Notes under the pieces: generated by a model
Seen by the model: the letters and a program-made list of their open reading frames with translations, nothing else
Databases searched by the model: none
What the model was told of the DNA's origin: nothing
Program-made: the position numbers and the translations under genes
Source of the DNA: Eubacteriales bacterium
GTDB taxonomy: Bacteria; Bacillota; Clostridia; Lachnospirales; Lachnospiraceae
Direction of reading: 5' to 3'
Length of the DNA stretch: 64,000 bases
Assembly: GCA_030539395.1 (NCBI GenBank)
Contig: JAUNSC010000012.1
Coordinates: 10,390 to 74,389 of the forward strand
Shown here: positions 5,663 through 38,778 of the stretch, in pieces
Layout of the letters: every line of letters begins with the position of its first letter
Position numbering within the stretch: position 1 is the first letter of the stretch

Positions 5663-7519
5663 TTATTGTTTCAACTCATACTTCCACGTCTTTAAAGAAA
5701 AATTGGGATTGTAATAAGGGTCTCCCTCTTTTAAAACTTTTATCCAGCGCTTACGCATGAACTCTATTTCATTTTGAAATCTGCGGATTTTCTCCTTTGT
5801 GTCCTCTGCACCTCTTGAACGTGATTCATGATGATACATTTCCGTATAAGGATCATAAACCACAAGATAACCCTTTTCTCTTACACGGAGGCAAAAGTCC
5901 ACATCATTAAACGCGACAGCAAGTGATGCGTCCATTCCTCCCACTTCTTCATATATACATTTCCTGATCATCATACATGCAGCCGTGACAGCGCTCAAAT
6001 CCTGAATCAGGGCCGCCTTGTGCATATATCCGCTCTGAACTCCCGGCATTCCTGTAAAAAGACTGCCGGCAATTCCGCCAATGCCGATAACAATACCTGC
6101 ATGCTGAATAGTTCCATCCGGATAATAAAGCCGCGCCCCCACAGCTGCAGTCCCCGGCCGCTGGCAAATTCCAAGAAACTCCTCTATCCATCCCGGCGTG
6201 ATAACAGTGATATCATTATTCAAAAGAACAATGTACTCCCCTTCCGATTTTTCCACTCCGAAATTGTTGATCTCCGGATAATTAAATCCCCTGCCCGGCC
6301 ATTTTACGATCTTCAGCTTCTTTCCATTTTTGCGGGCCTTTGCCATTGCCCGCTCATAATATTTAAATGTAGACGGATCTTCACTGTTATTTTCCACCAC
6401 AATAATCTCATAATTCTGGTAAGTCGTTTTTTCCCATACAGACTCAAGACATGCCTGCAGTTCTTCTTTATGATCCTTATTAGGAATCACCAGAGATACC
6501 AGCGGCTGTCCCTGCGGTTTATAGATAACCCGGTAAAACCCGGGGTCCTTTAATCTCTCCACCTGCCCCGGAAGCCCACATCTTTCAAGATGCGCCTCTA
6601 TTGCACATTTTCCGGCCTCGTAAGCATAATCTTTGCTGAAAGGATTATCTGCCGTAGACGAAGAATGGACTCTCCAGTGGTACAATACTTTCGGAACATG
6701 CACGATTTCTTCTGCCATTTCTGTACAGCGCAAAATGAAATCATAGTCCTGAGCGCCGTCAAATTTTTCATCCAAAAATCCGGCCCGGTCCGCCAGCGTC
6801 CGGCTTACACACAGAAAATGACAAATATAATTATTTGACCTCAGCAGATCCGGATTAAAATCCGGTTTAAAATGAGGCTGAAAATATTCTGCTTCATCTG
6901 CCGAAATTTTATCTTCATCACTGTAAAACATGTCCGCACCCGGACATGTCTTTGAAGCCTGTGCCAGTTCATACAATGCATCCGGTGAAAGAAGATCATC
7001 ATGATCCAGAAAACACAGATATTCCCCGGATGCCATACGGATGGCATAATTGGTATTCCGGGATATGCCGTCATTTGACTTCAGGACGCAATATTTTATC
7101 CTGTCGTCTTTTTTCTGATATTCCCGGACAACGGCTGTAAGAGACGTTTCTTCTCTTCCCGCTTCACAGGGGCTGGCATCCGCCAGGCACAATTCCCAGC
7201 CATCATATGTCTGGCTGCACACTGACTCAATCATGCGGCGCAAAAAATTCTCCGGTGTTTTATAAAGCGGCACTACAATACTGTAAATCTTTTTATTCTC
7301 CGGTTTCCAGCCTCGCTGCCTGCCCAGTTCTTCTTCTGAAGGCAAATGCTGCAGCCTCCACTGGTCATAACTGATCTCAGAATATTCAAAACGATCTGTC
7401 AGTTTCGCAATAAATCCTTTAAGCCCAAAATGGCGCAGATATAACACAGCTTTCTTTAAATTATAGGGGGACAGATGCCCCAGCATTCTGCCCCAGTCCA
7501 ATTTTGTATGTTTTTTCAT
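5663..7519 (-). CDS. Dual-domain GT2 glycosyltransferase (shortest of three paralogues); candidate rhamnan polymerising enzyme
   Basis: 618 aa. GT2 domain 1 starts SIVVPLYKTPENFLRRMIESVCSQTYDGWELCLADAS with FLDHDD. GT2 domain 2 starts LVSLVIPNKDH with LLNNDI and AFNDVDFCLR. The C-terminus is GDPYYNPNFSLK. It overlaps the upstream gene by 4 nt. Confidence 0.8.
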   Translation of the reverse strand: MKKHTKLDWGRMLGHLSPYNLKKAVLYLRHFGLKGFIAKLTDRFEYSEISYDQWRLQHLPSEEELGRQRGWKPENKKIYSIVVPLYKTPENFLRRMIESVCSQTYDGWELCLADASPCEAGREETSLTAVVREYQKKDDRIKYCVLKSNDGISRNTNYAIRMASGEYLCFLDHDDLLSPDALYELAQASKTCPGADMFYSDEDKISADEAEYFQPHFKPDFNPDLLRSNNYICHFLCVSRTLADRAGFLDEKFDGAQDYDFILRCTEMAEEIVHVPKVLYHWRVHSSSTADNPFSKDYAYEAGKCAIEAHLERCGLPGQVERLKDPGFYRVIYKPQGQPLVSLVIPNKDHKEELQACLESVWEKTTYQNYEIIVVENNSEDPSTFKYYERAMAKARKNGKKLKIVKWPGRGFNYPEINNFGVEKSEGEYIVLLNNDITVITPGWIEEFLGICQRPGTAAVGARLYYPDGTIQHAGIVIGIGGIAGSLFTGMPGVQSGYMHKAALIQDLSAVTAACMMIRKCIYEEVGGMDASLAVAFNDVDFCLRVREKGYLVVYDPYTEMYHHESRSRGAEDTKEKIRRFQNEIEFMRKRWIKVLKEGDPYYNPNFSLKTWKYELKQ

Positions 7520-11383: not shown

Positions 11384-13858
11384 CTAAACTCGTAATGAAA
11401 AGTCCGATTTATTAAGTGTCAGGTTCGGATTGTATGCCGGATCTCCTTTCTCCAGAATATCCGGCCATTTTTTCAGAAAGAGATCCGCCTCTCTGTTAAA
11501 CCGGGCCACTTTTTCAGGCGTATCTTCATATCCTCTTGACTTTGATTCATAATGATATAGCTGCGCATATGGATTATATACCACCAGCTTCCCGCTTTTT
11601 CTTATCTTCAGGCAAAGATCAATATCATTAAACGCCACCCTCAGTGTCTCATCAAATCCGCCTGCCGTTTCAAACGCCTTACGTTTAACCATCATACAGG
11701 CGGCCGTAACTGCACTTAAGTCTGCAGCACAGATAATTCTTGAAAAATATCCATTTTCCGTCCGGTGTTTTCCGATAAATGCATGACCGGCAATACCTCC
11801 AAAACCTATAATAACACCTGCATGCTGAATCGTATCATCCGGATAAAAAAGTCTCGCTCCAACAGCACCCACATCTTCCCGCATACATGGTCCGAGAAGT
11901 TCTTCAATACAGTCTTCGTTTATCATTTCAATATCATTATTTAAGAACAAAAGATACTCGCCTTTCGCATGATCCACGCCAAAATTGTTAATTCTGGAAT
12001 AATTAAATTCTTCTGCCCAGTAAACCACATGCACATTGGGATACTTCGTCTCAATTTCCTTATAGAAAGCAAACGTTGCATCCTCTGTACTGTTATTTTC
12101 TACAATAATAAATTCCAGATTCGGATAAGCAGATTTATTTCGCACAGAATCAATACATTTCCGCAGATCTTCCGAATGGTCTTTATTCGGAATAATCACA
12201 GAAACAGGCGGATACTCCTCAAACAGATAGCGGGTCCGATATAATCCCGGATATTCCCCCTCTTCCACAACCGCATTGATCCCAAGCCTGTCATAATGCG
12301 CCTGAACGGCTCTTTTTCCTGCAGCAAAAGCATAACGCTTGCTCTCAGGATTCTCTGCTGTGGAATCTTTATGCGCTCTCCAATGATACAGCACCCTCGG
12401 AATATGGTAGATCCGCCGTGCCTGCTCCACACATCTCAAAACAAAATCGTAATCCTGCGCTCCGTCAAACTCAGGATCAAGATATCCGGCTTTTTCAAAA
12501 AGCTCTCTTTTCACAGCCACCAGATGACAAAAATAATTCATGCTCCGCAAAAGATCAATATTAAAGTCCGGTTTAAAATGGGGTTGGAAAAACTCCTTTC
12601 CATTCATTGTAACCTTATCTTCATCCGTATAGATCATATCAATATCCGGCTGCTCATTAATCACCCGGGCACACTCAAACAACGCATCCGGTGAAAGCAG
12701 GTCATCATGGTCTGCAAAAACAATGAAATCTCCCTCTGCTGCCTTTAAAGCCTCATTTGTATTTTCTGAGATAGCCATCTGCTTCCCCGAACAGACCACT
12801 TTTATTCTACGGTTTTTTTTCTGGATCTCATCCAGAAAATCCGTCAGGGGAGAATCCGGTCCGCTTCCATCAGACAGGCAAAGTTCCCAGTTACGATATG
12901 TCTGATTTTCCACAGAATCAATGAGTTCTTTCAGATACTCCCGGGGTGTGCGGTATAGCGGGACCACAATGCTGAATAATGGCTGATACGGAAATACCGT
13001 CTTTTTCTGTGATGCCAGTTCTTCGCCTGACGGTATGCGTGTTTTCCGCCATTTCATATAATTTTCTCCGGTACTGTTTCCGCCTGAAAATATCTTTTCA
13101 ACGCAGCGCTTTGCTGTCCGCTTCAGACCATTGCGCTTAAAATATGCCGTTCCTTTCTGCCAGAGCGACGGCGTGCCTGTTGTCTTTGCCCCTCTTTTTA
13201 CCGAAACTCTGTAAACTGCTTTTTGTTCTCCGGCCTGCAAAAGGATTTTTACATGTCCCGACCGGGGTCTGACAAACATCACCTCAAATCCCATCTGTTC
13301 CGGAACGGCCATTTCTGTCCGGTTCTCTTCCAGTTCCGGAAATCCACTCCTTACATCTTCACGGTAATGCCACTTTATTTCAGATGGAATCTCGTTTCCA
13401 TTATCATCCGTAACTTTGATACAGCAGGGCTCATTTCCGGCCGCCCAGCCGCCTGCACATATTTTTCCGCGCTCCTCACGCCAGCTTTCCAGATAACTTT
13501 CCAGTTCTTTCTGCTTTTTCTGAAGCGCTGCTGTGTGTATTGAATGGATACGCTTTTTCTCATCAGACTGATACTGATACACTTCCAGCCGGGAGCACTC
13601 CGTAAAGTTCTCCGGAAGAGTGATCCATACATCATACTCCCGGTCAATATATCCTGATGCCGGTGCCTGTGCCATATATTTCTGGCGCACTGCAATCCCC
13701 TCTCTTACAGAAGTGCCAACTTCCAGTTCCTGTCCGTCCAAAAATGCTCTTAATCTGCTTCCCGCAATGGAATTCCCCATAAAATACCCCTGCAGCACAT
13801 ATACATATGGCTGCCCGATACAAAATCTGTTCCGCTGCAGAATAAACAATCGTTCCAT
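11384..13858 (-). CDS. Dual-domain GT2 glycosyltransferase with a ~290-aa beta-rich N-terminal extension (paralogue 2)
   Basis: 824 aa. The core from LFSIVVPLYRTPREYLKELIDSVENQTYRNWELCLSDGS (FADHDD), PVSVIIPNKDH (FLNNDI) to GDPAYNPNLTLNK is collinear with the 618- and 1010-aa paralogues. SD GGAGAT lies upstream. Confidence 0.8.
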   Translation of the reverse strand: MERLFILQRNRFCIGQPYVYVLQGYFMGNSIAGSRLRAFLDGQELEVGTSVREGIAVRQKYMAQAPASGYIDREYDVWITLPENFTECSRLEVYQYQSDEKKRIHSIHTAALQKKQKELESYLESWREERGKICAGGWAAGNEPCCIKVTDDNGNEIPSEIKWHYREDVRSGFPELEENRTEMAVPEQMGFEVMFVRPRSGHVKILLQAGEQKAVYRVSVKRGAKTTGTPSLWQKGTAYFKRNGLKRTAKRCVEKIFSGGNSTGENYMKWRKTRIPSGEELASQKKTVFPYQPLFSIVVPLYRTPREYLKELIDSVENQTYRNWELCLSDGSGPDSPLTDFLDEIQKKNRRIKVVCSGKQMAISENTNEALKAAEGDFIVFADHDDLLSPDALFECARVINEQPDIDMIYTDEDKVTMNGKEFFQPHFKPDFNIDLLRSMNYFCHLVAVKRELFEKAGYLDPEFDGAQDYDFVLRCVEQARRIYHIPRVLYHWRAHKDSTAENPESKRYAFAAGKRAVQAHYDRLGINAVVEEGEYPGLYRTRYLFEEYPPVSVIIPNKDHSEDLRKCIDSVRNKSAYPNLEFIIVENNSTEDATFAFYKEIETKYPNVHVVYWAEEFNYSRINNFGVDHAKGEYLLFLNNDIEMINEDCIEELLGPCMREDVGAVGARLFYPDDTIQHAGVIIGFGGIAGHAFIGKHRTENGYFSRIICAADLSAVTAACMMVKRKAFETAGGFDETLRVAFNDIDLCLKIRKSGKLVVYNPYAQLYHYESKSRGYEDTPEKVARFNREADLFLKKWPDILEKGDPAYNPNLTLNKSDFSLRV

Positions 13859-13880: not shown

Positions 13881-16800
13881 TTATACCAGAGTAAAGGGTG
13901 CTGCTTTCACCGAAAAATTCGGATTATAATACGGATCTCCCGCATCAACAGTCTCTCCCCAGTAATCTCTGAAACGTTCTACTTCTCTCTGAAAACGCTC
14001 CTGTTTTTCCGGGGTATCCTCGTATCCTCTGGACTTTGATTCATAATGATGCCACAGCGCAAAAGGATGCATTACGATCAGGTATCCTTCACTGCGCAGT
14101 TTCATACAAAAATCCACATCATTCAAAGCCACCGCAAATTCTTCGGAAAATCCTTCCACCTGCCGGTACACCTCACTGCGCACCATCATGCATGCCGCCG
14201 TAACCGCACTGAAATTTCCGGTAATTTTGGCTCTGGCCATATAGGCAGGATTGTCTTTTTCAAATCCGCTGAATACGTGACCTGCAAAACCTCCAAATCC
14301 AAGTACAATTCCCACATGCTGCACGGTATCATCTTCAAAAAGAAGTTTCGCCCCAACGGCTCCCACATCTTTTCGCATACAGTATCCCAGCATTTCCCCG
14401 ATACCATCCGGTGAGATCAGTTCCGTATCATTGTTCAGCAAAAGCAGATAGTCTCCCTTAGCCTTGCTGACCCCAAAATTATTGATGGCAGAATAATTAA
14501 ACTCCCTGTCCCATATTTCCACACGCACCTGAGGAAATTCACTTTGTATCTTTTTGTAATAATCCCAGGTCTGATCCTGCCTGCTGTTATTCTCCACCAC
14601 CACAATCTCCAGATTGCGGTAACTGCTCTTTTCCATAATAGAACGGATGCATTTATCCAGATCATCCGTATGGTCTTTGTTTGGTATAATTACGGAAACC
14701 AGAGGATTTTCCGGTGTATCATATGTCACATGATACATGGCATGCATCTCTGTCATTTCCACGCTGCCCTTTAATCCCATCCGTTTCAGATGTTCTTCAA
14801 CAGCCTTTTTTCCTGCTTCATAGGCATACATTTTGCTCTCAGGATTCTGAGCCGTAGAATTCCTGTGCATTCTCCAGTGATAAAGAATTTTGGGTACATG
14901 GCGCACTTCATTTGCCCTCTCCACGCTTCGCAGGATCAGATCGTAATCCTGAGCCCCGTCAAATTCACTCCGAAAGCCTCCAAGTTCATCAAACAGCGCT
15001 TTTTTTAAAACAAACAAATGAGTGATGTAATTGTGAGACCGGAGAAGATCCGGCGAAAAATCCGGTTTCAAATGTGGAGAAAAATATTCTTCCCCTTCTG
15101 TATCCACTTTATCTTCGTCTGTGTAAAGGACATCCGGCATCGTTTCCTGCATGGCATAAACAACCTCAAACAGCGCATCCGGTGAAAGCAGGTCATCATG
15201 GTCAAGAAGCGCAATATACTCTCCTGTTGCCATTGCCGCAGCTCCGTTTGTATTTCCGGAAATACCTGTGTTCTCTTTTAAAACTACATACTTTATTCTC
15301 TCGTCTGCCGCAGCGTAACCGTCCAGTATGTCTGTCACTTCCCTGCCGGAACCGCCGTCCGCGATACAAAGTTCCCAGTTCCCATATGTCTGGGCAACTA
15401 CCGAATCCAGCATCTCTTTTAAAAATTTCACAGGTGTCTTATACGTGGGCACAAGAATACTGATTTTCGGGCAGTACTGTGGCCTGCTCTTTCTCTGCGC
15501 AGCCAGCTCTTCTTCTGTCTTTGCATGCTGAAGATACCATTTATGATAGGTATTTTTGTCCAATGTGCGTTTCAAATGAGCGACCTGCCCATTTATGCGG
15601 ACAGAAAAGTAATTGCGCACGCTCCTGGCTTTCTCCATTGCACGAAATCCCTTCGTCCCACGGATTGCCTGAAGCTGCCCCCGCACATTTTCCAGTTCCT
15701 CAAAATATGCATCTCTCTGGCGGCGTATCTGAACGAATTCAGGAAGCAGTTCTTCCATTGTAACTGTCTGCAGCCACCCCCGGATTACAATCTTCTTTAT
15801 TTTCTGGAAAGCTCCGCTTACCGCATAAGCCGGATCTCTCGTCCAGAAAACATCCTCAGTGCCTTCACAAAAGCCATTTATTGCCGACATTTTAAGCGGC
15901 GTCTGAGCCGATAATTGATCAATCCTGATACGGCACAACTGGCCTTCCAGCGGATCCCACCGAAGCTTATGCTGCCCTTTCAGCACCTTTTCTCCGCCCG
16001 ACAGATCAAATTCTACTTCAAATCTTCCCGTCTCATCCGCTGTAAGCTGCGCCGCAATGCTCCATATCATCTCTCCCTGTTCACTCCACAAAGAGAGAGT
16101 ACTTTTAAAGCTGTTTCCCTGCTGCTTTTCTTTTCCAATTCCAAGCTGAGCCAGTGAGATACTTCCCGGAGAAATCCCGGCAAACATTTCCCGAAGGGGT
16201 ACATGGCTTCCGGTCACATACGCCTGAAAAGCCTTTTCCATCTCCTGATATGCCCTGATCTGGGCCACATCAATTTCTTCTTCTGCGCAATGTTTCACCA
16301 GCGTTTCACTCTGCTGAGGGAAATTACGGTAAATAAAATAACGCCAGATCCGGTAAATAATGAAATTTACCGGTATCGGAAAGTCAAATGTCCATTCATA
16401 GTCAATTAAAGTCCTGACATTTCCGTCCTGTGTCAGAACAATGTTTTCCAGAACCATATCAATATCCGTCACCGGCATGCATTTCAGTTCTCCCATAAAC
16501 CGGATATCTCCGAATACCTTTTTGAAGCCTTCCGTATATTCAAAGTCCTGAGTGGCGCACCTGCGCAGAACCGTCAGGAAGTCCTCCATGATCTGAAATG
16601 CCCGGTCTTTCTCGCCCTTTTGCACCAGATCATACAGCTGCTTCTCCAGTGTAACGCCGCCCTCAAGGTATTCCAGACAGACACTGCCGTCAGATATCTC
16701 CTTTACTTTGTTTACGCAGATTTCAAAGGGGGCAAACTGCTTCTGCAGTTTCTCATACCAGCCGCAGGTCTGTGCCACATGATTCTTCCCTTCCGGATAA

Positions 16801-16913
16801 CACGCGGTCTTTTCCACCGTTTTTGTACCCTTTTCATCTATCCATATATCTGTGCGGACAGAAAATTTACGGTCTCTTTCATTTGAATGTTTTGAAAACA
16901 CAATGTTTTTCAT
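13881..16913 (-). CDS. Kinase-like domain + spacer/coiled-coil + dual GT2 fusion protein (paralogue 3); candidate polymerase-terminator
   Basis: 1010 aa. Residues 1-230 show a protein-kinase/APH-like motif order: TVEKTA (Lys), LEYLEGG (hinge), TDIDMVLENIVL (D-x4-N catalytic loop) and, 14 aa later, LIDYEW (metal-binding Asp). Residues 396-430 are heptad-like (RRQRDAYFEELENVRGQLQAIRG). The GT2 core runs from KISILVPTYKTP (LLDHDD), LVSVIIPNKDH (LLNNDT) to GDPYYNPNFSVK. Confidence 0.75.
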   Translation of the reverse strand: MKNIVFSKHSNERDRKFSVRTDIWIDEKGTKTVEKTACYPEGKNHVAQTCGWYEKLQKQFAPFEICVNKVKEISDGSVCLEYLEGGVTLEKQLYDLVQKGEKDRAFQIMEDFLTVLRRCATQDFEYTEGFKKVFGDIRFMGELKCMPVTDIDMVLENIVLTQDGNVRTLIDYEWTFDFPIPVNFIIYRIWRYFIYRNFPQQSETLVKHCAEEEIDVAQIRAYQEMEKAFQAYVTGSHVPLREMFAGISPGSISLAQLGIGKEKQQGNSFKSTLSLWSEQGEMIWSIAAQLTADETGRFEVEFDLSGGEKVLKGQHKLRWDPLEGQLCRIRIDQLSAQTPLKMSAINGFCEGTEDVFWTRDPAYAVSGAFQKIKKIVIRGWLQTVTMEELLPEFVQIRRQRDAYFEELENVRGQLQAIRGTKGFRAMEKARSVRNYFSVRINGQVAHLKRTLDKNTYHKWYLQHAKTEEELAAQRKSRPQYCPKISILVPTYKTPVKFLKEMLDSVVAQTYGNWELCIADGGSGREVTDILDGYAAADERIKYVVLKENTGISGNTNGAAAMATGEYIALLDHDDLLSPDALFEVVYAMQETMPDVLYTDEDKVDTEGEEYFSPHLKPDFSPDLLRSHNYITHLFVLKKALFDELGGFRSEFDGAQDYDLILRSVERANEVRHVPKILYHWRMHRNSTAQNPESKMYAYEAGKKAVEEHLKRMGLKGSVEMTEMHAMYHVTYDTPENPLVSVIIPNKDHTDDLDKCIRSIMEKSSYRNLEIVVVENNSRQDQTWDYYKKIQSEFPQVRVEIWDREFNYSAINNFGVSKAKGDYLLLLNNDTELISPDGIGEMLGYCMRKDVGAVGAKLLFEDDTVQHVGIVLGFGGFAGHVFSGFEKDNPAYMARAKITGNFSAVTAACMMVRSEVYRQVEGFSEEFAVALNDVDFCMKLRSEGYLIVMHPFALWHHYESKSRGYEDTPEKQERFQREVERFRDYWGETVDAGDPYYNPNFSVKAAPFTLV

Positions 16914-16919
16914 TTAGAA

Positions 16920-17846
16920 TTATTCCCTCTCTAAAATAACCAGGTATGAATTGGAATACAACGGAAAAAGTCCGCATTCCAACATCGAATCAAAAGCAAG
17001 CTTCTCGTCAAAAAGTACAAGCCTGTCCCTGTCAAAATTCCAGATATTTGTATTTAACTCTCCCTTTTGCGGTAGATATTCATCGGAATAAATTGTCATG
17101 GGCAATTTATAATCAGGATAGGGATAATAGAACTTCCAGTTTTTAAACCCTGCCACAGCAAAAAGCTTTTCAAGTTCCGGCTTTGCAAAAGTTCTCACCG
17201 TACAGTCTTTTGAATAATTTTCCATTCCTTCAAACAGGTTTCCTGTGTGGTCTTCCCTGCATCCTGCCCAGTACTTCATTCCCAACCGGTTTTCTATGGC
17301 GATCACCACTTTCCCGCCCGGAGCAAGGTGTGCCGATATCTGACGCAGGAACTCAACATACGGCTGCTGTGTTCCAATATATCCCTGCGCGTATTCAAAC
17401 ACGCCGATCAGCGTGATATAATCATATTTTTTTGTCAGATTTTTTTCAATATCCTGAAAATTTCCCACCATAATCGTGAGATTATCTGCATTCTGATGTC
17501 TGTAAGCATTCACCAGACTTCTTTTTCTGGATAAATCCACGCAGGTGACATGCCCGGCTTTTTCTGTAAGCGCCCCTGTGATGGCTCCGCATCCTGCTCC
17601 GATTTCCAAAACCTCATCCGTTTTTCCAATCGGCAGCCAATCCACAATATTCTGACGGATGTGAGACATGTGATATAAAACAGCCCAGTCCTTTTCTCTA
17701 TCTATGACGGCATTCATTTCTTCTTCGCCGACAGTTCTGGCAATTTCCAGCAGCCGGTCCTCTATCTCACCATCACTGTAAAGATCTTTTCCCGGATACC
17801 AGGTATAGTCCAGGGTAACTTTCCCAATTTGTTCTCTGTCATTCAT
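16920..17846 (-). CDS. Class I SAM-dependent methyltransferase
   Basis: 308 aa with SAM motif I VLEIGAGCGAITGAL, then the acidic residue in CVDLS, and post-I/II motifs LIGVFEY and LAPGGKVVIAIENRLG. It overlaps the upstream Wzt gene by 8 nt. Confidence 0.85.
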   Translation of the reverse strand: MNDREQIGKVTLDYTWYPGKDLYSDGEIEDRLLEIARTVGEEEMNAVIDREKDWAVLYHMSHIRQNIVDWLPIGKTDEVLEIGAGCGAITGALTEKAGHVTCVDLSRKRSLVNAYRHQNADNLTIMVGNFQDIEKNLTKKYDYITLIGVFEYAQGYIGTQQPYVEFLRQISAHLAPGGKVVIAIENRLGMKYWAGCREDHTGNLFEGMENYSKDCTVRTFAKPELEKLFAVAGFKNWKFYYPYPDYKLPMTIYSDEYLPQKGELNTNIWNFDRDRLVLFDEKLAFDSMLECGLFPLYSNSYLVILERE

Positions 17847-19155
17847 TCAGCAGTGTCACCTCCGAATTGGTATCGTAGAATCCCACCGTATTTTTTGTAG
17901 ATACAATTGTCAGATTACATGCTTCATACAACCGGTGATGTACCACAAAATCTACCCCGTCATATCCTGTACAGCCAAGAGACAGCATGTACTCTCCGCC
18001 CTGCATATCCATATTCTGCGTAAAGGCAATCTCCTGTGTCTCTCCCGGATTTTTGGATTTCACATTCACCCGCTCAAAAAGGCTGTTTGTTCCCGTAATA
18101 TCCGTTCCCTTTAAATCTGTAATCGTAAAAGCATAGATCGGGTCGTTTACTTTTTCATTAAACTTCACCTTCATCCGGATCGTGCACTTTCTTCCCTTTT
18201 CCAGCGTATTCGATGATTTTCCTTCCTCATCCAGAATATTAAATCCAATGATCTCAGCCCGTTTATCCCCATATTCATTAATCTGGGGATTGACCGGAAA
18301 TGCCGGTGTCCAGGCATCCGCCGGCTCTGCCTCCTTCGGCTGCACAGCTTTTTTCTGTTTCTCATCCGCTTTTCCAGATCCCAGACTGTCCAGATCAAGC
18401 TGATTTACCAAAAGTTTTTTATAAAGATCGACCATGTCCTTCGGGTCTCCCTCTGCCAGCTTATCGCCCTTATTCAGCAAAATCACACGGTCGCAGTATT
18501 TCCTGATGCTGGAAAGATCATGACTTACAAAAATGATCGTCTTTCCCATCTCTTTAAAATCTTCAAATTTACGGTAACATTTTGACTGGAAAAAAACATC
18601 TCCCACAGAAAGTGCTTCATCTACGATCAATATCTCCGGATCAATGTTTATGGCAACCGCAAACGCCAGACGCACGAACATACCGCTGGAATAAGTCTTC
18701 ACCGGCTGGTATACAAAATCACCGATATCTGCAAATTCAAGAATATCCGCAAGTTTTGCGTCGACTTCCTCCCTGGAAAATCCGATCATCGTGCCATTTA
18801 AATATATATTTTCAATTCCCGTGTATTCCATATTAAAGCCGGCGCCCAGCTCCAGCAGGGCGGAAATTCTCCCGTCCACCGTCACTTTTCCCCCGCTGGG
18901 ATTTAAGACACCGGTAATAATCTTCAAAATTGTGGATTTACCGGAACCGTTTGTTCCGATAATCCCTACTGTTTCTCCCCGTTTTACATCAAAACTGATA
19001 TTATTCAGAGCATAATGATCCCTGGACAGGGTCTTTCCCCTTGAAAGTCCAAGAGATTCCAAAAGCCTGTCCTTGGGTCTGTCATATAATTTGTATATCT
19101 TAGTCAGGTCTTCCACCCTGATCGCATAATCCTGCATGCTGTAACCTTCCTGCAA
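17839..19155 (-). CDS. wzt: Polysaccharide ABC exporter ATP-binding protein with a C-terminal Wzt_C-type carbohydrate-binding domain
   Basis: 438 aa. It has Walker A GTNGSGKST, signature YSSGMFVRLAFA and Walker B ILIVDEALSVGD. A ~170-aa beta-rich extension (about 17842-18348: IIGFNILDEEGK..IRMKVKF..YAFTITDLKGTDITGTN..MLSLGCT) is absent from the second exporter ATPase at 35983-36720. Confidence 0.85.
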   Translation of the reverse strand: MQEGYSMQDYAIRVEDLTKIYKLYDRPKDRLLESLGLSRGKTLSRDHYALNNISFDVKRGETVGIIGTNGSGKSTILKIITGVLNPSGGKVTVDGRISALLELGAGFNMEYTGIENIYLNGTMIGFSREEVDAKLADILEFADIGDFVYQPVKTYSSGMFVRLAFAVAINIDPEILIVDEALSVGDVFFQSKCYRKFEDFKEMGKTIIFVSHDLSSIRKYCDRVILLNKGDKLAEGDPKDMVDLYKKLLVNQLDLDSLGSGKADEKQKKAVQPKEAEPADAWTPAFPVNPQINEYGDKRAEIIGFNILDEEGKSSNTLEKGRKCTIRMKVKFNEKVNDPIYAFTITDLKGTDITGTNSLFERVNVKSKNPGETQEIAFTQNMDMQGGEYMLSLGCTGYDGVDFVVHHRLYEACNLTIVSTKNTVGFYDTNSEVTLLNE

Positions 19156-19185: not shown

Positions 19186-20004
19186 CTATAACACATCTGC
19201 AAAATGAATTTTCAATTTTTTGAAAACCCGCGTCCCCAGTATGAACATTATAATAGTAAATGCCCAGAAGTACAAGGTCAGCGCAGGCCGCTCCCAGAAC
19301 CATTTGCCATTGATCAGTGCATCTCTGTAGCCCTCCACAATATAGAACATGGGATTGAGCTTCAATATGAACACCAGCAGTCCCGACAAACGAAAATCCT
19401 CAAAATTCCACATAATCGGTGTCATCCAGACTCCAACCTGCAGACAGATATTAATAAACTGAGACAAATCCCTGAAAAAAATAACAATTGCACTGGTCAT
19501 ATAGGATATTCCCAATACCAATATAAACATGGCCATGGAATAGTATATGATCTGAATTACCTCTATCCCCGGCATATGCCCCATCACAATATAAAGGAGC
19601 AGACATATGCCTATAAATACAAGATGGACAAACAACGCTGATATCAGCTTCACAACAGGCAGAACATTTATATTAAATACTACTTTTTTGACAAGATAGC
19701 TGTATTCTATCAGAGAATTCGTTCCGCTGTTCAATCCTTCCTGAAAGAAAAACCATGGAACAAGCCCGGCTACCAGCCAAAGTACAAATGGCACTTCCCT
19801 TTCAGCTCCGTCCCTCAAATTTGAAAAAACAAACCAGTACACCAGGATTGTGACCAACGGCTGGATAAACGCCCAGATAATTCCCAGATAAGATCCTGCA
19901 TATTTTGTTTTGAAATCATTTTTTGCCAGGCTCAGTATCATTTTTCTATTTTGATACGTTTCACCCAGCAAAGAAAAAAAGCGTGTTATCATAGATTCTC
20001 CCAT
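19186..20004 (-). CDS. wzm: ABC-2 type polysaccharide exporter permease (Wzm/TagG/RgpC-like)
   Basis: 272 aa, six hydrophobic segments. The N-terminal motif KNDFKTKYAGSYLGIIWAFIQPL is typical of ABC-2 polysaccharide permeases. It abuts rfbC with no gap. Confidence 0.85.
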   Translation of the reverse strand: MGESMITRFFSLLGETYQNRKMILSLAKNDFKTKYAGSYLGIIWAFIQPLVTILVYWFVFSNLRDGAEREVPFVLWLVAGLVPWFFFQEGLNSGTNSLIEYSYLVKKVVFNINVLPVVKLISALFVHLVFIGICLLLYIVMGHMPGIEVIQIIYYSMAMFILVLGISYMTSAIVIFFRDLSQFINICLQVGVWMTPIMWNFEDFRLSGLLVFILKLNPMFYIVEGYRDALINGKWFWERPALTLYFWAFTIIMFILGTRVFKKLKIHFADVL

Positions 20005-20556
20005 CTATTTCTTAAGTTGCCTGATCGTGCCCCATTTCTGATCCTTTTCAGAAATCGTCAGCTCCATGCCTTCCGGGATCGGCCAGTCAATCCCGATATC
20101 CGGATCATTCCACATGATCCCGCCCTCATCATCCGGATGATAAAAATCCGAACACTTGTAAGTAAATTCCGCATAATCCGAAAGTACCAGAAATCCATGC
20201 GCAAAGTTCTTCGGGATAAAGAACTGCTTCTTATTTTCCGCAGAAAGAATGACTCCATACCACTTCCCGTAAGTAGCTGAACCCTCTCTTAAGTCCACAG
20301 CCACATCAAATACTTCTCCCGATACCACCCTTACTATTTTATCCTGGGAATACTTTTTCTGGAAGTGCAGGCCTCTCAGCACCCCTTTTTTGGATGCCGA
20401 CTGGTTATCCTGCACAAATTCCATCTCTATTCCCGCTTCTTTATAATCATTGAAGTTATATGTCTCCATGAAATACCCACGCTCGTCTCCGAAAATCGTG
20501 GGGGTAATCACCTTCAGGCCTTCTATTTCACAGGTCTCCACTGTAATCTTTCCCAT
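20005..20556 (-). CDS. rfbC: dTDP-4-dehydrorhamnose 3,5-epimerase
   Basis: 183 aa; FGDERGYFMETYN, GVLRGLHFQ, KIVRVVSGEVFDVAVDLR and NFAHGFLVLSD are classic RmlC motifs. Confidence 0.95.
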   Translation of the reverse strand: MGKITVETCEIEGLKVITPTIFGDERGYFMETYNFNDYKEAGIEMEFVQDNQSASKKGVLRGLHFQKKYSQDKIVRVVSGEVFDVAVDLREGSATYGKWYGVILSAENKKQFFIPKNFAHGFLVLSDYAEFTYKCSDFYHPDDEGGIMWNDPDIGIDWPIPEGMELTISEKDQKWGTIRQLKK

Positions 20557-20575
20557 GTTCTGTCCTCGATCCTCA

Positions 20576-21463
20576 CTACTGTTTTACGTTCCCGCCAAGT
20601 CCCTCTGCGATCTCCATCAGGTACTGACCATAAGCTGTTTTGAGCAGCGGCTGTGCAAGGGCAACCAGCTGGTCTTTATTGATAAACCCCCGCTTGTAAG
20701 CGATCTCCTCAATACAGGAAATATAAAGTCCCTGGCGTTTCTGGAATGCAGCCACAAAATCAGCCGCGTCCAGCAGCGCATCATGGTTTCCCGTATCCAG
20801 CCATGCAAATCCCCGGCCCAGCGTTTCTACCTGAAGAGTTCCTCTTCTCAGGTATTCATTATTGATGCTGGTAATCTCGATCTCACCTCTGGCGGAAGGC
20901 TTTACATTTTTAGCGATCTCCACTACATCATTGTCATAGAAGTACAATCCCGGCACCGCATAGTTGCTTCTTGGGTGCTCCGGTTTTTCCTCAATGGAAA
21001 GCGCTTTTCCGTTTTCATCAAACTCCACTACGCCATATTCTCTCGGATCCTTGACATAATAACCAAAAATAGTCGCTCCCCGCTCCCTTTCAGCCGCGCT
21101 TTTCAGCACTCTTGAAAAGCTCTGCCCGTAGAAGATATTATCTCCCAGGACAAGCGCCACCCTGTCATCCCCGATAAATTCTTCCCCGATAAGAAATGCG
21201 TCCGCAAGCCCCCTGGGCTGTTCCTGGACAGCATAGGAAAAACGCATTCCAAGCTGCTCTCCCGTCCCCAGAAGGTCTTCAAAAACCGGAAGGTCCCTCG
21301 GTGTGGAAATGATCAGCACTTCACGGATGCCTGCCAGCATCAGTGTGGAAAGCGGATAGTAGATCATCGGCTTGTCATAAACAGGCATGATCTGTTTTGA
21401 AATTGCCTTTGTCAGCGGATAAAGCCGGGTGCCGGCTCCGCCCGCAAGTATGATACCTTTCAT
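20576..21463 (-). CDS. rfbA: Glucose-1-phosphate thymidylyltransferase
   Basis: 295 aa; [34 protein letters not shown] and [14 protein letters not shown] are the RmlA signature. Confidence 0.95.
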
Positions 21464-21510
21464 CAGTTCCTCCTTATACGTATAAGCATACCCGAACGCC
21501 TGCCCGGAAA

Positions 21511-22593
21511 CTATTTGTTCGAGTACATATCGTCATAGTATTTCTGGTAATCTCCGCTGGTCACGTTTTTCATCCAGTCTTCGTTCTCAAAAAACCATTT
21601 GATCGTCATGCGGATCCCATCCCTGAACATGGTTTCCGGCTCCCAGCCAAGCTCTGCACGGATCTTATCCGGTGCGATGGCATAGCGCCTGTCATGGCCC
21701 TTGCGGTCTGTCACATAAGTAATCAGGTTTTCGCTTACCAGCTCTCTTCTCGGATCATTTTCCGGAAGCATCTCCAGAAGGGTGTCCAGAATGATATGGA
21801 TGATCTCAATATTCTGCTTCTCGTTATGTCCGCCGATATTATAGGTCTCAAAAAGACGTCCCTTTTCCTGTACAAGGTCGATCCCCTTTGCGTGATCTTC
21901 CACATAGAGCCAGTCACGCACATTTTTTCCGTCCCCGTATACCGGGAGCGGTTTGCCCTGGAGTGCATTATTGATCATCAGCGGAATCAGTTTCTCCGGG
22001 AACTGGTACGGTCCGTAATTATTGCTGCAGTTCGTGATATTGGCCGGGAATCTGTAAGTATCCATATAAGCCTTTACCAGCATGTCAGAAGATGCCTTGC
22101 TGGCAGAATAGGGGCTGTGAGGATCATACGGAGTCGTCTCATAAAAATACTCTCCCTCATTTTCCAGTGATCCATATACTTCATCCGTAGAAACATGAAG
22201 GAATTTTTTGCCCTCTTTAAAGCTTCCGTCCGGCAGTTCCCATGCAGCCTTAGCCGCATTCAGCATCACAAGTGTTCCCAGGACATTTGTCTTTACAAAA
22301 ACATCCGGGTTCTTAATGCTGCGGTCTACGTGGCTTTCTGCCGCAAAGTGTACGACGCGGTCGATATCATTTTCCTCAAATATTTTCATGATCGCGTCAC
22401 TGTCCGTAATATCCGCTTTCACGAACGTATAGTTATCACGTTTTTCCACATCACGGAGATTCTCCAGATTACCTGCATAAGTCAGGCAGTCTACATTTAT
22501 GATGCGGATCTCATTATCATATTTTTTAAACATGTAGTGAATATAGTTGGAACCGATAAAACCTGCTCCTCCGGTTACAAGATAAGTTCTCAT
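21511..22593 (-). CDS. rfbB: dTDP-glucose 4,6-dehydratase
   Basis: 360 aa; [30 protein letters not shown] and [12 protein letters not shown] (Y-x3-K) are the RmlB signature. SD GGAGG lies upstream. It is the first gene of operon 1. Confidence 0.95.
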
Positions 22594-22631
22594 TTGTTTT
22601 CCTCCACTATTTTATTGCATAGCTATGTTTT

Positions 22632-22660
22632 ATTATAGCAAAAAAGCCTGTTCTGGGCAA
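22632..22660 (-). promoter_or_regulatory. Predicted sigma-A promoter of the rfbB-led operon (TTGCCC -17 nt- TGcTATAAT)
   Basis: On the minus strand, -35 TTGCCC is at 22660-22655, followed by a 17-nt spacer. The extended -10 TGCTATAAT is at 22640-22632, about 38 nt upstream of the rfbB ATG. Read by eye, not scored. Confidence 0.55.
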
Positions 22661-22664
22661 GGCA

Positions 22665-22712
22665 TTAACCTTATTTTATAAATTTTCCTTAACCTTATTT
22701 TATAAATTTTCC
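22665..22712. repeat. Perfect 24-bp tandem direct repeat (TTAACCTTATTTTATAAATTTTCC x2) abutting the -35 box
   Basis: Copy 1 is 22665-22688 and copy 2 is 22689-22712, identical on reading. It lies 4 nt upstream of the predicted -35 of the rfbB promoter. Confidence 0.9.
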
Positions 22713-23244
22713 TGCGCTTCGATTGATCACGCTATATATATCATGACAAGCATAGTCAAATGTAGAAAATCTGCGATACGCTTCTCTTATTTTGCTCTCA
22801 GAAACGAGAGTTGATTATCAAGGAAGTTCACATATATTTGTACATTTTTTTCTTCAGATAAACTTGACGTTATCGAAAATAATATGATATTGTATATAGC
22901 AGATTTCTTTAATTCAATTTATAGGAAGGAGTGAAATGGATACTTTCCGGAAATATGCAGAAATTCTTTTATAATTATTCGAGAAAAACTAATGAAATTG
23001 TTATAGATAAGCCAAGACCTGATTCCAGGCCAGTAAATAATTTTTCTGAAATTATTCAGCAGCAGCATCCTGTTTCGCATGCAATAATACCCGTTGCATA
23101 TATTTTAGCTGATGAATAGTCAAATCATACAAGGACAATTACAGAAAACTCTATTCATATATGGTGTTTTCTGCAATTGTCCTTATATTTTGCAAAACAG
23201 ATCCCGCAATGAAAAACGCAAATGTCACCCCGGAATAATATATT

Positions 23245-23283
23245 ATAAAAACAAGGGCAGAACCTGTGAAAATGGTTCTGCCC
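23245..23283 (-). terminator. Rho-independent terminator ending operon 2
   Basis: Stem GGGCAGAACC (23255-23264), 9-nt loop, stem GGTTCTGCCC (23274-23283). On the minus strand it is followed by TTGTTTTTAT. It sits 25 nt after the stop of the 222-aa gene. Confidence 0.75.
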
Positions 23284-23308
23284 ATATAATACTCTATGTT
23301 AAACATTT

Positions 23309-23977
23309 TTAAAATCTATCCGATGCGAGACCAAAATATCTCTTTCCATTATAATCTCTGTACGCGCGAATCTTAAAAGGATATCTCAGATAATTTGAAT
23401 AACCCATTTTCAAATAAGAATTAGAAGGCCTAATCATAGAATAGTGTCTCCAGTTACTTCCATTCCAATAAAGAATCTGATATCCGCTGATCTTAGACTG
23501 AGTGCTAAAATGAATATATACAAAATTTCCGCTGCGGTATTTGCTTCCAAGCGATACCTTTCCAGGTATAACATTGAAAGTACGTGTAGCCCATTTACTA
23601 TAACGACCCTTTTTATCAATTGCTCTTACCTGCCATTTGTAAGCGCCTGCTCCCCTATAAGAGCCTGAAAAATAATCACTTAATCTGAACCGGGTTGCAT
23701 TTGTACTATTGTTGATCGTAGTGCTGTAATTCCAACCGGGCCCAGTAATCTTCACCTGATAACATTTAATACTCGACATAAATTTGGTATTCAGATATAT
23801 TGTATCAGTTGTCGCAAATGTAGACTTGTTATTATATGAATTATTGTCAGAAACATATAATGACGGTGCACTCACTGCTTTTGCTGATAAAGGCAAAGCG
23901 CCAACCATCATAATCATGGCAAACGTTGCTAAAACAACCTTAGAAAATTTCATAACTCCTTCTTTAAAGCTTTTCAT
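23309..23977 (-). CDS. Secreted protein of unknown function with two FN3-like modules
   Basis: 222 aa with a signal peptide (KFSKVVLATFAMIMMVGALPLSAKA). FN3-like strand patterns are YQVKITGPGW..YKWQVRAIDKKGRYSKWATRTFNV and SGYQILYWNGSNW..YPFKIRAYRDYNGKRYFG. SD AAGGAG is 9 nt before the ATG at 23977. Confidence 0.6.
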   Translation of the reverse strand: MKSFKEGVMKFSKVVLATFAMIMMVGALPLSAKAVSAPSLYVSDNNSYNNKSTFATTDTIYLNTKFMSSIKCYQVKITGPGWNYSTTINNSTNATRFRLSDYFSGSYRGAGAYKWQVRAIDKKGRYSKWATRTFNVIPGKVSLGSKYRSGNFVYIHFSTQSKISGYQILYWNGSNWRHYSMIRPSNSYLKMGYSNYLRYPFKIRAYRDYNGKRYFGLASDRF

Positions 23978-24059
23978 AAAACCTCTCTCCTTCCCCTACT
24001 GCTTTTCTGCTTAAAATGCTGCTTATAATTAGTACTTTTGCACAAATACATTGTATTAT

Positions 24060-24116
24060 AAAAAAAAATTTTTTACAAGTATTTGTTCACAAAATTTTCA
24101 CAAATTTTCACATTAC
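24060..24116. promoter_or_regulatory. A9T6 tract followed by three helically phased TTCACA direct repeats upstream of the FN3-like secreted-protein gene
   Basis: A9 is at 24060-24068 and T6 at 24069-24074. TTCACAAAATT (24086), TTCACAAATT (24097) and TTCACATTAC (24107) are spaced 10-11 bp apart. Function unknown. Confidence 0.35.
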
Positions 24117-24210
24117 AATTAACTTCTATAAGAAAAAAAGGTACCGGCAGCTTCAATCTCATGCCCATACCTTTTTCTTCATTAATCAAATACTCTCGAA
24201 GTGCAAACTG

Positions 24211-36720: not shown

Positions 36721-36729
36721 TTTTATCTC

Positions 36730-38769: not shown

Positions 38770-38778
38770 TTTTTTCCT

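Follow-up and report, generated by a model that had tools for sequence, protein, structure and literature searches.

A predicted chain-termination and export module for a rhamnose-rich wall polysaccharide in a Lachnospiraceae-type Clostridia organism, related to the Klebsiella O7 system

WsaE of G. stearothermophilus and WbbB of K. pneumoniae O12 are single chains that join a terminating activity to two polymerising GT modules. The terminator of WsaE, which belongs to a Gram-positive rhamnan system, is an O-methyltransferase without a kinase, and that of WbbB is a GT99 Kdo transferase. To our knowledge, neither carries the kinase-like plus beta-sandwich head of the protein described here, to which both are likened by description and not by sequence. 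In the WbdD/WbdA/Wzt system of E. coli O9a and K. pneumoniae O3, a kinase and a methyltransferase (MT) produce a methyl-phosphate cap, a spacer separates terminator from polymerase, and the cap is bound by the C-terminal domain of Wzt. The closest relative is ORF6 of K. pneumoniae O7, a single chain with the order MT, kinase, Ig-like domain, coiled coil, GT2 and GT2 (Kelly et al. 2024, J Biol Chem, PMC11231755). In vitro, ORF6-O7 phosphorylates and then methylates a rhamnose-terminated acceptor, yielding a methyl-phosphate cap, and the D441A substitution abolishes phosphorylation (PMC11231755). In C. difficile Ox247 (SLCT-11), the S-layer glycan ends in 2,3-cyclophosphoryl-rhamnose, and the locus carries orf10, annotated as “AdoMet_MTase + glycosyltransferase”, next to a wzt gene whose product has a Wzt_C-like domain (Richards et al., J Biol Chem 2018, PMC6254364).

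The window (the whole 64-kb stretch of DNA that was analysed) contains four contiguous genes, all on the minus strand, that we judge likely to constitute an ABC-transporter-dependent module by which a Lachnospiraceae-type Clostridia organism of the gut assembles, terminates and exports a rhamnose-rich wall polysaccharide. They encode the exporter permease Wzm (19186..20004; PF01061 ABC2_membrane, E 8e-18), which occupies the same place upstream of Wzt in related loci, the exporter ATPase Wzt (17839..19155; ABC_tran and Wzt_C), a stand-alone class I SAM methyltransferase (16920..17846; Pfam Methyltransf_12/23/25/11) and a protein of 1010 aa (13881-16913). The dTDP-L-rhamnose precursor genes rmlC, rmlA and rmlB lie directly upstream (20005..22593, minus strand; Pfam dTDP_sugar_isom, NTP_transferase and GDP_Man_Dehyd/Epimerase), and rmlD is found at 32960-33883 (RmlD_sub_bind). 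On the other side, also on the minus strand, is a second dual-GT2 protein of 824 aa (11384..13858; two Pfam GT2 matches), whose GT region shares 52% identity with the one in the 1010-aa protein. It has its own N-terminal domain of ~265 aa without assigned function, and its full-length orthologues come after the kinase gene in related loci. The window also encodes a 618-aa dual-GT2 paralogue of the 1010-aa protein. The exact 1010-aa protein is present in one NCBI MAG and two independent Logan assemblies, and is therefore not an assembly artefact.

Pfam detects only the GT2 modules of the 1010-aa protein, from residue 485 on. An AlphaFold2 (AF2) model of residues 1-480 (mean pLDDT 87, mostly above 90 in the kinase-like part) places a kinase-like lobe pair in residues 1-250, a beta-sandwich in 268-384 and long helices in 386-445; the kinase-like domain is taken as residues 1-255 (16149..16913). 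Foldseek comparison of this model with the PDB returned 219 matches at E<=1e-3; the best 50 of these are all kinases of the protein-kinase-like/APH superfamily, with probability 1.0, and the top matches include PRPK/Bud32, LicA, macrolide phosphotransferases, RIO, ethanolamine kinase and DAPK1. This bears out the proposal of a kinase-like N-terminal domain made in the preliminary description, the motifs of which are located at residues 32-35 (TVEK), 80-85 (LEYLEG), 150-157 (DIDMVLEN) and 169-174 (LIDYEW), the latter two at nt 16392-16466. Across 70 homologues, divergent enough for an average column identity of 23%, K35, D152, N157, D171 and E173 are invariant, with a D-to-N spacing of 5 and an N-to-D spacing of 14. 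K35, D152, N157 and D171 are the predicted catalytic residues. D152, N157 and D171 had been named before as targets for mutation; D150, named with them, is variable (N in 38 homologues, D in 32).

WbdD was the first candidate for a prototype of this domain, and was rejected: no PDB chain, WbdD included, was matched meaningfully by the single sequence or by the family profile, and WbdD is absent from the best 50 Foldseek matches. The family is instead of the ORF6-O7 type. The WbdD system and, by prediction, that of the window share the kinase-plus-methyltransferase cap logic, a spacer and a cap-binding Wzt domain, and the WbdD residues D351, N356 and D369 are spaced similarly to the catalytic Asp/Asn/Asp of the window. 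However, the kinase-like domains have no detectable sequence homology. The WbdD kinase has a Src-type eukaryotic likeness and a DFG motif, whereas the domain in the window resembles Bud32, RIO, APH and choline-kinase folds and carries D-Y-E; and the coiled coil of WbdD is long and trimeric and its polymerase, WbdA, is a separate protein that it recruits, whereas the protein in the window has a short spacer and its own polymerase modules.

The relationship with the O7 type is seen in the methyltransferase and GT2 modules. The methyltransferase overlaps wzt by 8 nt (17839-17846), as originally reported, and residues 80-90 (nt 17577-17609) form its SAM motif, LEIGAGCGAIT. Against the corresponding region of proteobacterial ORF6-like proteins it shows 35-37% identity (E 2e-46 and 2e-43), and its peptide VLEIGAGCGAIT is identical at 12/12 positions to the ORF6-O7 peptide around G91/G93, as deduced from published primers. 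The GT2-GT2 region (residues 482-1010, 13881..15470; PF00535 twice and PF13641), a predicted rhamnosyltransferase polymerase, aligns over 536 aa with the GT2-GT2 part of a Pseudomonas ORF6-like protein at 41.8% identity (E 4e-124), and with the two GT2 fragments published for ORF6-O7 at 39.8% and 39.6%. For the kinase-like domain the link to the O7 type is remote and relies on profile methods through a Pseudomonas intermediate. The intermediate, a 1457-aa protein of Pseudomonas asturiensis with the layout MT-Kin-beta-CC-GT2-GT2, is matched by the family profile with an hmmsearch E of 1e-8 (in a search space of two sequences) and by hhalign with a probability of 96.4% (E 1e-9, 262 columns). It has the D441 motif of ORF6-O7 (G-x-FIDAVP); at the position of K35 it does not conserve the lysine.

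The order of domains after the methyltransferase is also that of ORF6-O7: an atypical kinase of ~220-250 aa that Pfam does not match, with the catalytic-loop form I-D-x-V-x-x-N ... L-I-D-x-E-W, then a beta-sandwich, a helical spacer and a pair of rhamnosyltransferase-type GT2 modules. In both cases the gene adjoins wzm/wzt and belongs to an ABC-transporter-dependent pathway that involves rhamnose. The beta-sandwich (residues 266-385, 15759..16118, from AF2 models) occupies the place that the Ig-like “CBM” has after the kinase of ORF6-O7, can be aligned with the Pseudomonas homologue, and carries conserved R318-x-D320-P321 and D360-P361; comparison with the PDB found no significant neighbour and no recognisable carbohydrate-binding relative. 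The spacer (residues 386-480, 15474..15758) has AF2 helices at 386-418 and 421-445/453, in a monomer model of a kind that cannot reveal a coiled coil. Within it, GTKGFRAMEKARS (residues 419-431) corresponds to the C-terminal tail motif of stand-alone homologues, the family consensus of which terminates in M-x-N-T-K-x-W-K-x-Y-x-K. Fused homologues have spacers of 23 to 367 aa, and at about 60-95 residues the helical spacer of the window is shorter than that of ORF6-O7. The role of molecular ruler once suggested for it would be the weakest step of the mechanism.

Unlike ORF6-O7, the system in the window has its methyltransferase in a separate gene, its activity is predicted, and its host is a Gram-positive of the Clostridia, so that the product, given the LCP ligase in the window (1924-3183), would be a wall-linked polymer and not an LPS O antigen. 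We regard as well supported by these comparisons the view that the module is a split-gene Gram-positive variant of the system proven in Klebsiella O7 in 2024. The arrangement had been thought undescribed; this holds for the gene split, but a single-chain MT-kinase-GT2-GT2 protein had already been reported (PMC11231755).

Wzt carries a C-terminal domain (PF14524 Wzt_C, E 1.1e-39; residues 293-428, 17872..18279) that is predicted to recognise the cap. Searched alone, its top PDB match is the methyl-phosphate-binding Wzt-C of E. coli O9a, 2R5O (E 2.5e-5), a weak similarity (27 bits) that does not prove the ligand of the domain. It is 52-56% identical to the Wzt C-domains of Blautia, Ruminococcus and Enterococcus loci, which hold the same MT and kinase genes. 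The best PDB matches of the nucleotide-binding domain are Aquifex Wzt 8dku/7k2t.

Relatives of the kinase-like family are found in 404 species-representative genomes; the family is large in Firmicutes, and hundreds of gut species have the module. Cultured carriers include Robinsoniella peoriensis CCUG 48729 and Blautia schinkii DSM 10518. Upstream sequence of 4 kb or more is available for 74 species loci, and in every one of them the kinase-like gene occurs together with an MT and a Wzt bearing the C-domain. The order rml-Wzm-Wzt(+Wzt_C)-MT-Kin-GT2x2-GT2x2 recurs in Blautia, Ruminococcus sp. OA3 and Enterococcus. Every fusion state occurs: MT-Kin, Kin-GT2x2 and MT-Kin-GT2x2. In the first, proteins of ~730 aa, the methyltransferase forms the N-terminal half, to which the stand-alone MT of the window is 55-65% identical over its full length, and the kinase-like domain forms the C-terminal half. 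Over 80 species loci, the kinase-like domain is fused to polymerase GT2 modules in 25, and the state seen in the window, with a separate MT, accounts for 15, a common arrangement and not an unusual one. We found no biochemistry or glycan structure in the literature for Firmicute members of the family, this organism included.

Taken together, sequence, fold and gene context favour the functional reading first proposed (a kinase-like and MT capping machine, a dual-GT2 polymerase and gating by Wzt), but not its WbdD prototype or its novelty. Most likely, the module halts rhamnan growth with a phosphate-based cap and exports capped chains only; by analogy with O7, the cap is probably methyl-phosphate. 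The glycan would be assembled from dTDP-L-rhamnose on undecaprenyl phosphate at the cytoplasmic face, with the 1010-aa protein and its paralogues of 824 and 618 aa supplying the dual-GT2 modules. The kinase-like domain, held apart from the GT2 modules by the beta-sandwich and helical spacer, would transfer phosphate from ATP to a hydroxyl group on the sugar at the non-reducing end, and the MT would methylate this phosphate, blocking extension. The Wzt C-terminal domain would read the cap, so that Wzm/Wzt would flip finished chains only, and the LCP ligase would then join them to peptidoglycan. The value of the module is that, for Gram-positive rhamnans, chain termination has yet to be proven.

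Chains might instead be terminated by a cap other than methyl-phosphate, such as a free or cyclised phosphate, or a sugar hydroxyl O-methylated by the MT, with Wzt_C reading either. O-methyl caps are established for E. coli O8 WbdD and Geobacillus WsaE. C. difficile Ox247 provides a cyclic phosphate on terminal rhamnose, with an MT-containing GT gene beside Wzt (PMC6254364). Like the window, Ox247 belongs to the Clostridia and has a rhamnose-rich, ABC-transporter-dependent glycan with rml genes, Wzm and a Wzt with a Wzt_C-like domain, orf10 being likened by annotation; unlike the polymer predicted here, its glycan is O-linked to SlpA by a WsaB-type ligase. Given this cyclic-phosphate precedent, the cap finally made may be of another kind. 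Nevertheless, we consider such a cap rather unlikely, since the kinase and the MT invariably occur together and are in many cases fused as MT-Kin, a pattern that fits two consecutive steps at one site. The MT, moreover, shares an identical SAM motif and homology with the MT of the ORF6-O7 type, which methylates phosphate (35-37% identity being to its orthologues).

That the kinase-like domain and MT decorate the chain internally, or activate a small-molecule substituent in a LicA/choline-like manner, with no length control and with Wzt_C reading another feature, appears highly improbable. Kinases for choline (LicA) and ethanolamine do rank among the closest structures and the window is rich in decoration genes, but LicB, LicC and LicD-type genes were not found within it, the domain is fused to polymerase GT2 modules in many species and follows Wzt in all loci examined, and the characterised homologue ORF6-O7 modifies the glycan terminus. 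Least probable of all is an inactive pseudokinase serving as scaffold or glycan-binding head, with termination by methylation alone or by exporter-to-polymerase stoichiometry. Here the lack of a GxGxxG-type glycine-rich loop, replaced in the family by an S-N-E-R motif, and of a sequence-level match among solved kinases is set against the invariance of the catalytic-loop Asp/Asn, metal-binding Asp and beta3 Lys in 70 divergent sequences, which is read as the signature of an active phosphotransferase. The ORF6-O7 kinase, moreover, is equally atypical yet active (PMC11231755).

The decoration genes of the window include YfhO, acyltransferase and Dlt-like genes. The true start of Wzt is probably the ATG at 19137, which is preceded by a GGAAGG ribosome-binding site, rather than the TTG at 19155. 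A second exporter ATPase of 245 aa (35983-36720) adjoins an ABC-2 permease, TarI/TarJ-like genes and Glyphos_transf genes; as noted in the preliminary description, it lacks the C-terminal extension, and only ABC_tran is detected in it.

The kinase-like gene lies in a tightly packed run of genes, all on the minus strand, in which rmlB, rmlA and rmlC (20005-22593, -) directly precede the ABC exporter permease Wzm (19186-20004, -; Pfam ABC2_membrane), followed by the exporter ATPase Wzt (17839-19155, -), a 308-aa methyltransferase (MT; 16920-17846, -) matched by several class I SAM-methyltransferase Pfam models, a 1010-aa protein (13881-16913, -), an 824-aa dual-GT2 protein (11384-13858, -) and then YfhO. 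All of rmlABCD are found by Pfam within the window. The MT gene overlaps that of Wzt by 8 nt, and 6 nt separate the MT stop from the start of the 1010-aa protein, in which Pfam recognises two GT2 modules alone, from residue 485 onward. The source MAG annotates proteins of the module merely as “glycosyltransferase family 2 protein” and “class I SAM-dependent methyltransferase”. The preliminary description, which proposed capping and export gating on the model of WbdD, WbdA and Wzt of E. coli O9a, was accurate in its factual statements on domains, coordinates and motifs, including the class I SAM methyltransferase overlapping Wzt, with the exception of residue D150, a position occupied by N in 38 of 70 aligned sequences and by D in the other 32.

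Wzt consists of an ABC domain (ABC_tran) followed by the C-terminal domain Wzt_C (PF14524, residues 293-428, E 1.1e-39). In the PDB, Wzt_C matches 2R5O, 8dku, 6o14 and 5hno, the best of these being the methyl-phosphate-binding domain of E. coli O9a (2R5O, E 2.5e-5). As had been claimed, the extension is missing from the second exporter ATPase of the window, a protein of 245 aa (35983-36720, -). The corresponding C-domains of comparable Firmicute loci share 52-56% identity with Wzt_C. The longest Wzt ORF begins at TTG 19155; since a GGAAGG ribosome-binding site precedes ATG 19137 by 8 nt and this start agrees with the N-termini of Wzt homologues (M-x-D-x-A-I), Wzt probably starts at ATG 19137 and has 432 aa rather than 438.

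Searches of the region preceding the GT2 modules against the PDB came up empty: the N-terminal 478 aa had no match by single-sequence phmmer, and a 70-sequence family profile run against all PDB chains gave just two spurious coiled-coil-type matches. None of the Pfam kinase models was significant against the 1010-aa protein. Fold prediction was therefore needed. AlphaFold2, run on residues 1-480 with the 70-sequence alignment, gave a model with a mean pLDDT of 87 in which residues 1-250 form a bilobal domain. Foldseek returned 219 PDB matches at E<=1e-3 for this model, and the best 50 of the 219 are all protein-kinase-like/APH-superfamily enzymes with a probability of 1.0, as the preliminary description had anticipated from motif order; they include PRPK/Bud32, the pneumococcal choline kinase LicA, macrolide 2'-phosphotransferases, RIO kinases, ethanolamine kinase and DAPK1. 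K35 (TVEK), D152 and N157 (DIDMVLEN), and D171 and E173 (LIDYEW) are invariant in 70/70 aligned sequences. Judged from the sequence, these residues are spaced (D-5-N-14-D) as in the catalytic loop and metal-binding Asp of kinases, the WbdD equivalents being D351, N356 and D369. The head thus has the bilobal fold, beta3 Lys, D-x-x-x-x-N loop and downstream metal-binding Asp of the protein-kinase-like/APH fold. A choline-kinase-type (Lic) reading was also considered and rejected, there being no Lic-type genes within the window.

The head is followed in the AlphaFold2 models by a beta-sandwich (residues 268-384; pLDDT 83 when modelled separately) and by long helices (residues 386-445 in the monomer models). 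The beta domain aligns with that of a homologue from Pseudomonas asturiensis by both HMMER and hhalign. A carbohydrate-binding role for it may be proposed by analogy alone, because Foldseek with the beta-sandwich and helices together (residues 261-480) returned nothing at E<=1e-3. The helical spacer of the 1010-aa protein measures ~60-95 aa, and 97 residues lie between the beta-sandwich and the first GT2 module, a distance that ranges from 23 to 367 among fused members of the family. Four stand-alone kinase-like proteins (P0009, P0040, P0059 and P0116) share a conserved C-terminal M-x-N-T-K-x-W-K-x-Y-x-K, which takes a SASWKISKPIR-like form in a further homologue, P0112. A degenerate copy, GTKGFRAMEKARS, is internal in the 1010-aa protein, just before the GT2 linker (residues 419-431, nt 15621-15659). 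By analogy with the C-terminal region of WbdD, this motif may serve as a helix that docks to the membrane or to the polymerase.

WbdD, on which the preliminary description was modelled, has an N-terminally fused MT and a long trimeric coiled coil, whereas the window has a separate MT and a spacer of ~60-95 aa; moreover, WbdD was matched neither by phmmer nor by the family profile against all PDB chains, and is absent from the best 50 Foldseek matches, so that the window protein falls outside the WbdD family. Two other systems that had been brought in as parallels differ in their domains. The terminator of WbbB (Klebsiella pneumoniae O12) is a GT99 beta-Kdo transferase, whereas the N-terminal domain in the window is kinase-like and not of GT fold; and WsaE of G. 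stearothermophilus, by description, joins an O-methyltransferase to two rhamnosyltransferase modules and has no kinase, unlike the window, with its kinase-like domain and separate MT. A closer counterpart is ORF6-O7 of K. pneumoniae O7 (Kelly et al. 2024, PMC11231755). This protein of 1414 aa combines a methyltransferase and a 223-aa kinase, termed “unannotated”, with an Ig-like domain, a coiled coil and two GT2 rhamnosyltransferase modules. On a rhamnose-terminated acceptor, ORF6-O7 carries out first phosphorylation and then methylation, and the D441A substitution abolishes the phosphorylation; its kinase is described as “quite different” from that of WbdD, the closest structure being the amicoumacin kinase AmiN, and the study reports orthologues in alpha- and gamma-proteobacteria and in cyanobacteria (PMC11231755).

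ORF6-O7 was compared with the window through two GT2 segments and the peptides GRVLEIGAGCGAITRFLG and INQTIPGKFIDAVP, deduced from primers in the supplement of that paper. The window MT carries VLEIGAGCGAIT, which is identical at 12/12 positions to the ORF6-O7 peptide deduced from the published G91A/G93A primers, and the window GT2 modules are 39.8% and 39.6% identical to the two ORF6-O7 GT2 fragments. A 217-aa ORF6-O7 stretch (from residue 766) retrieved fragments and stand-alone GTs alone from a set of 5.8 billion proteins; its best match, from Azospirillum, was set aside as a GT at a contig end with neither MT nor kinase upstream. Searching plasmids with the window MT by tblastn identified two proteobacterial ORF6-like loci: Pseudomonas asturiensis pCC1524 (L007) encodes Wzm, a 455-aa Wzt and a 1457-aa protein with MT, kinase-like, beta, coiled-coil and two GT2 domains that contains LPGIFIDAVPQN, and Citrobacter braakii pF217-3 (L008) encodes rmlBACD, Wzm, a 453-aa Wzt and a 649-aa MT-kinase-coiled-coil protein. 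The window MT is 34.8% identical to the MT part of the former (E 2e-46) and 36.9% identical to that of the latter (E 2e-43), and the window GT2-GT2 region is 41.8% identical to the Pseudomonas protein over 536 aa (E 4e-124). The Firmicute kinase-family profile matches residues 442-725 of the Pseudomonas protein (hmmsearch E 1e-8 in a two-sequence search space), and alignment of the two families profile to profile gives a probability of 96.4% and E 1.1e-9 in hhalign over 262 columns spanning kinase and beta-sandwich, pairing IDMVLEN..LIDYEW of the window with IDAVPQN..LIDVEW. The Pseudomonas homologue carries the D441 motif of ORF6-O7 (G-x-FIDAVP), and it is via this intermediate that D152 of the window aligns.

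The window therefore has the MT GxGxG motif, the kinase catalytic Asp (through the Pseudomonas homologue) and the two C-terminal GT2 modules of the O7-type family, differing from ORF6-O7 in that the MT is encoded by a separate gene. On these sequence comparisons we conclude that MT and the 1010-aa protein represent a predicted split-gene Firmicute version of the O7-type terminator-polymerase, and not relatives of WbdD. The two plasmid loci are complete O7-type loci (Wzm, a Wzt of ~455 aa and an MT-kinase-coiled-coil protein with or without GT2-GT2), and one of the two plasmids, from a human isolate, is conjugative (MOBF/MPF_F) and also carries rmlBACD and an IS630 element. Since complete loci sit on plasmids, O-antigen capping and export modules may be mobile horizontally.

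Residues 1-478 used as query retrieved 236 relatives, the majority of them “hypothetical proteins” of 410-460 aa from Blautia, Ruminococcus, Lachnospiraceae and Enterococcus. In many others, of ~730 aa, the N-terminal half matches the window MT over its full length at 55-65% identity, and the C-terminal half corresponds to the kinase-like/beta/helical unit. An exhaustive profile search of 1.84 billion cluster representatives yielded 4260 proteins at E<=1e-3 (1610 at E<=1e-30), and among the top matches are kinase-GT2-GT2 proteins as in the window (e.g. 1014, 1042 and 1003 aa), forms with an additional GT4 module or RgpF domain, and an all-in-one MT-kinase-GT2-GT2 protein of 1339 aa. When this last protein served as the query, the all-in-one form (about 1240-1500 aa) proved very common among MAGs of Clostridiales, Lachnospiraceae and Erysipelotrichaceae.

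With each GTDB species represented by a single genome, a relative was detected in 404 genomes, and the best 80 of these were annotated with profiles built in this analysis. The kinase-like domain stands alone in 44/80 loci, is fused to MT in 11/80, to GT modules in 15/80 (the state in the window) and to both in 10/80. A rare or artefactual fusion is thus ruled out by the 15 species loci, together with the presence of the exact 1010-aa protein in three assemblies, namely the source MAG and two independent ones. A Wzt with C-domain and an MT, fused or separate, are encoded no farther than 6 kb upstream, and on the same strand, in 74/74 loci that have at least 4 kb of upstream sequence, and upstream in 79/80 loci overall, the sole exception being without any upstream sequence. 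In three loci studied in detail (Blautia, Ruminococcus sp. OA3 and Enterococcus sp. BWB1-3) the order is rml, Wzm, Wzt with Wzt_C, MT, kinase-like gene and two dual-GT2 units. Cultured members of the best 80 include Robinsoniella peoriensis, Blautia schinkii, B. faecis, B. glucerasea, B. acetigignens, Fusicatenibacter faecihominis and two Enterococcus species. All of the best 80 are Firmicutes except one labelled “Prevotella sp. CAG:279” (L081, contig CAVIGE010000006.1), which may be misbinned or may point to horizontal transfer into Bacteroidota. The 824-aa protein and its Blautia, Ruminococcus and Enterococcus orthologues have in common a further N-terminal domain of ~265 aa, without a Pfam match.

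The domain identities, folds, fusions, strict co-occurrence with Wzt_C and homology to a family proven to cap with methyl-phosphate are directly supported. In the mechanism that we propose, an undecaprenyl-linked rhamnan would be made by three paralogous dual-GT2 modules of predicted sugar specificity, located in the 618-aa (5663-7519, -), 824-aa (11384-13858, -) and 1010-aa (13881-15470, -) proteins and ~50% identical to one another. The kinase-like domain would phosphorylate the non-reducing terminal sugar, MT would then methylate the terminal phosphate, the resulting cap would stop extension, and the C-domain of Wzt, whose ligand is predicted, would read the cap ahead of export. The least secure step is a ruler function, with which the helical nature of the spacer and its variable length across the family are compatible, but the spacer of the window protein is short.

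Within the Clostridia, the S-layer glycan of C. difficile Ox247 (SLCT-11) ends in 2,3-cyclophosphoryl-rhamnose, the capping enzyme of which has not been identified, and in orf10-orf12 of its locus an “AdoMet_MTase + glycosyltransferase” gene adjoins a Wzt with a Wzt_C-like domain (PMC6254364). It provides a precedent, among the Clostridia, for capping terminal rhamnose with phosphate. Because O2 and O3 of rhamnose are cis, cyclisation of a 3-O-methyl-phosphate with loss of methanol is conceivable and could in principle, speculatively, give the C. difficile cap. We consider it quite possible, if a little short of evenly balanced, that a methyl-phosphate or derived cyclic-phosphate cap, added by the kinase-like/MT pair, is a general chain end and export licence for the rhamnose-rich wall polysaccharides of Lachnospiraceae, some Enterococcus and other Firmicutes. 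If so, the SLCT-11 cap would be a product of the same enzyme family, and chain length would be set species by species through the variable spacer (23-367 aa). The module would also give a new annotation to thousands of database entries from abundant human-gut Lachnospiraceae that now read “hypothetical protein” or “glycosyltransferase”, and a methyl-phosphate at the chain end would present phages and the immune system with a defined surface epitope.

The advance would be incremental rather than conceptual, as knowledge of this class of capping mechanism goes back to WbdD and that of the enzyme family to 2024. Of the suggestion that the arrangement is undescribed, the part concerning the domain family is overtaken by the publication of ORF6-O7; no description of the separate-MT form, nor of the large Firmicute presence of the family, was found in the accessible literature, and a 2019 survey of terminators and Wzt-CBMs might already list Firmicute loci of this type. 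According to a 2022 review, chain-length setting of Gram-positive rhamnose-rich wall polysaccharides is without experimental evidence, there being just an untested idea of capping by RgpE (PMC9574508), and the module is therefore a useful and directly testable candidate. It offers named predicted catalytic residues (K35, D152, N157, D171 and the MT GxGxG motif), a Gram-negative homologue of proven biochemistry from which assays can be adapted, and cultured carriers.

Nearly the whole window (1-64000) is a one-strand cell-envelope glycopolymer super-locus with strongly negative GC skew. G+C drops to ~0.37 at 22600-24200, between rmlB and an Acyl_transf_3 gene, from ~0.42-0.48 on either side; a 222-aa ORF in this region (23309-23977) has no Pfam match. 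The second exporter, comprising an ABC-2 permease (36730-37509, -) and the ATPase without C-domain, belongs to a second glycopolymer export cluster (35983-41719, -) with two Glyphos_transf proteins (TagF/TarL-type) and an IspD-like cytidylyltransferase and alcohol dehydrogenase (TarI/TarJ-like). As it is set among TarI/TarJ-like and CDP-glycerol/ribitol phosphotransferase genes, it resembles a teichoic-acid exporter, and the cluster probably encodes a pathway for ribitol-phosphate teichoic acid; the gene of a DUF6273 protein lies at 34850-35965. Elsewhere in the super-locus are two Bac_transf initiating transferases (3201-4616 and 53860-55263), an LCP ligase (1924-3183), a DltA/DltB-like pair (AMP-binding, 49157-50671; MBOAT, 50681-52261), YfhO, a DegT aminotransferase, two UDP-sugar dehydrogenases and a UDP-GlcNAc 2-epimerase. 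The sole plus-strand gene among the ORFs examined by Pfam encodes a Big_2/DUF4886 surface protein (42605-44326, +).
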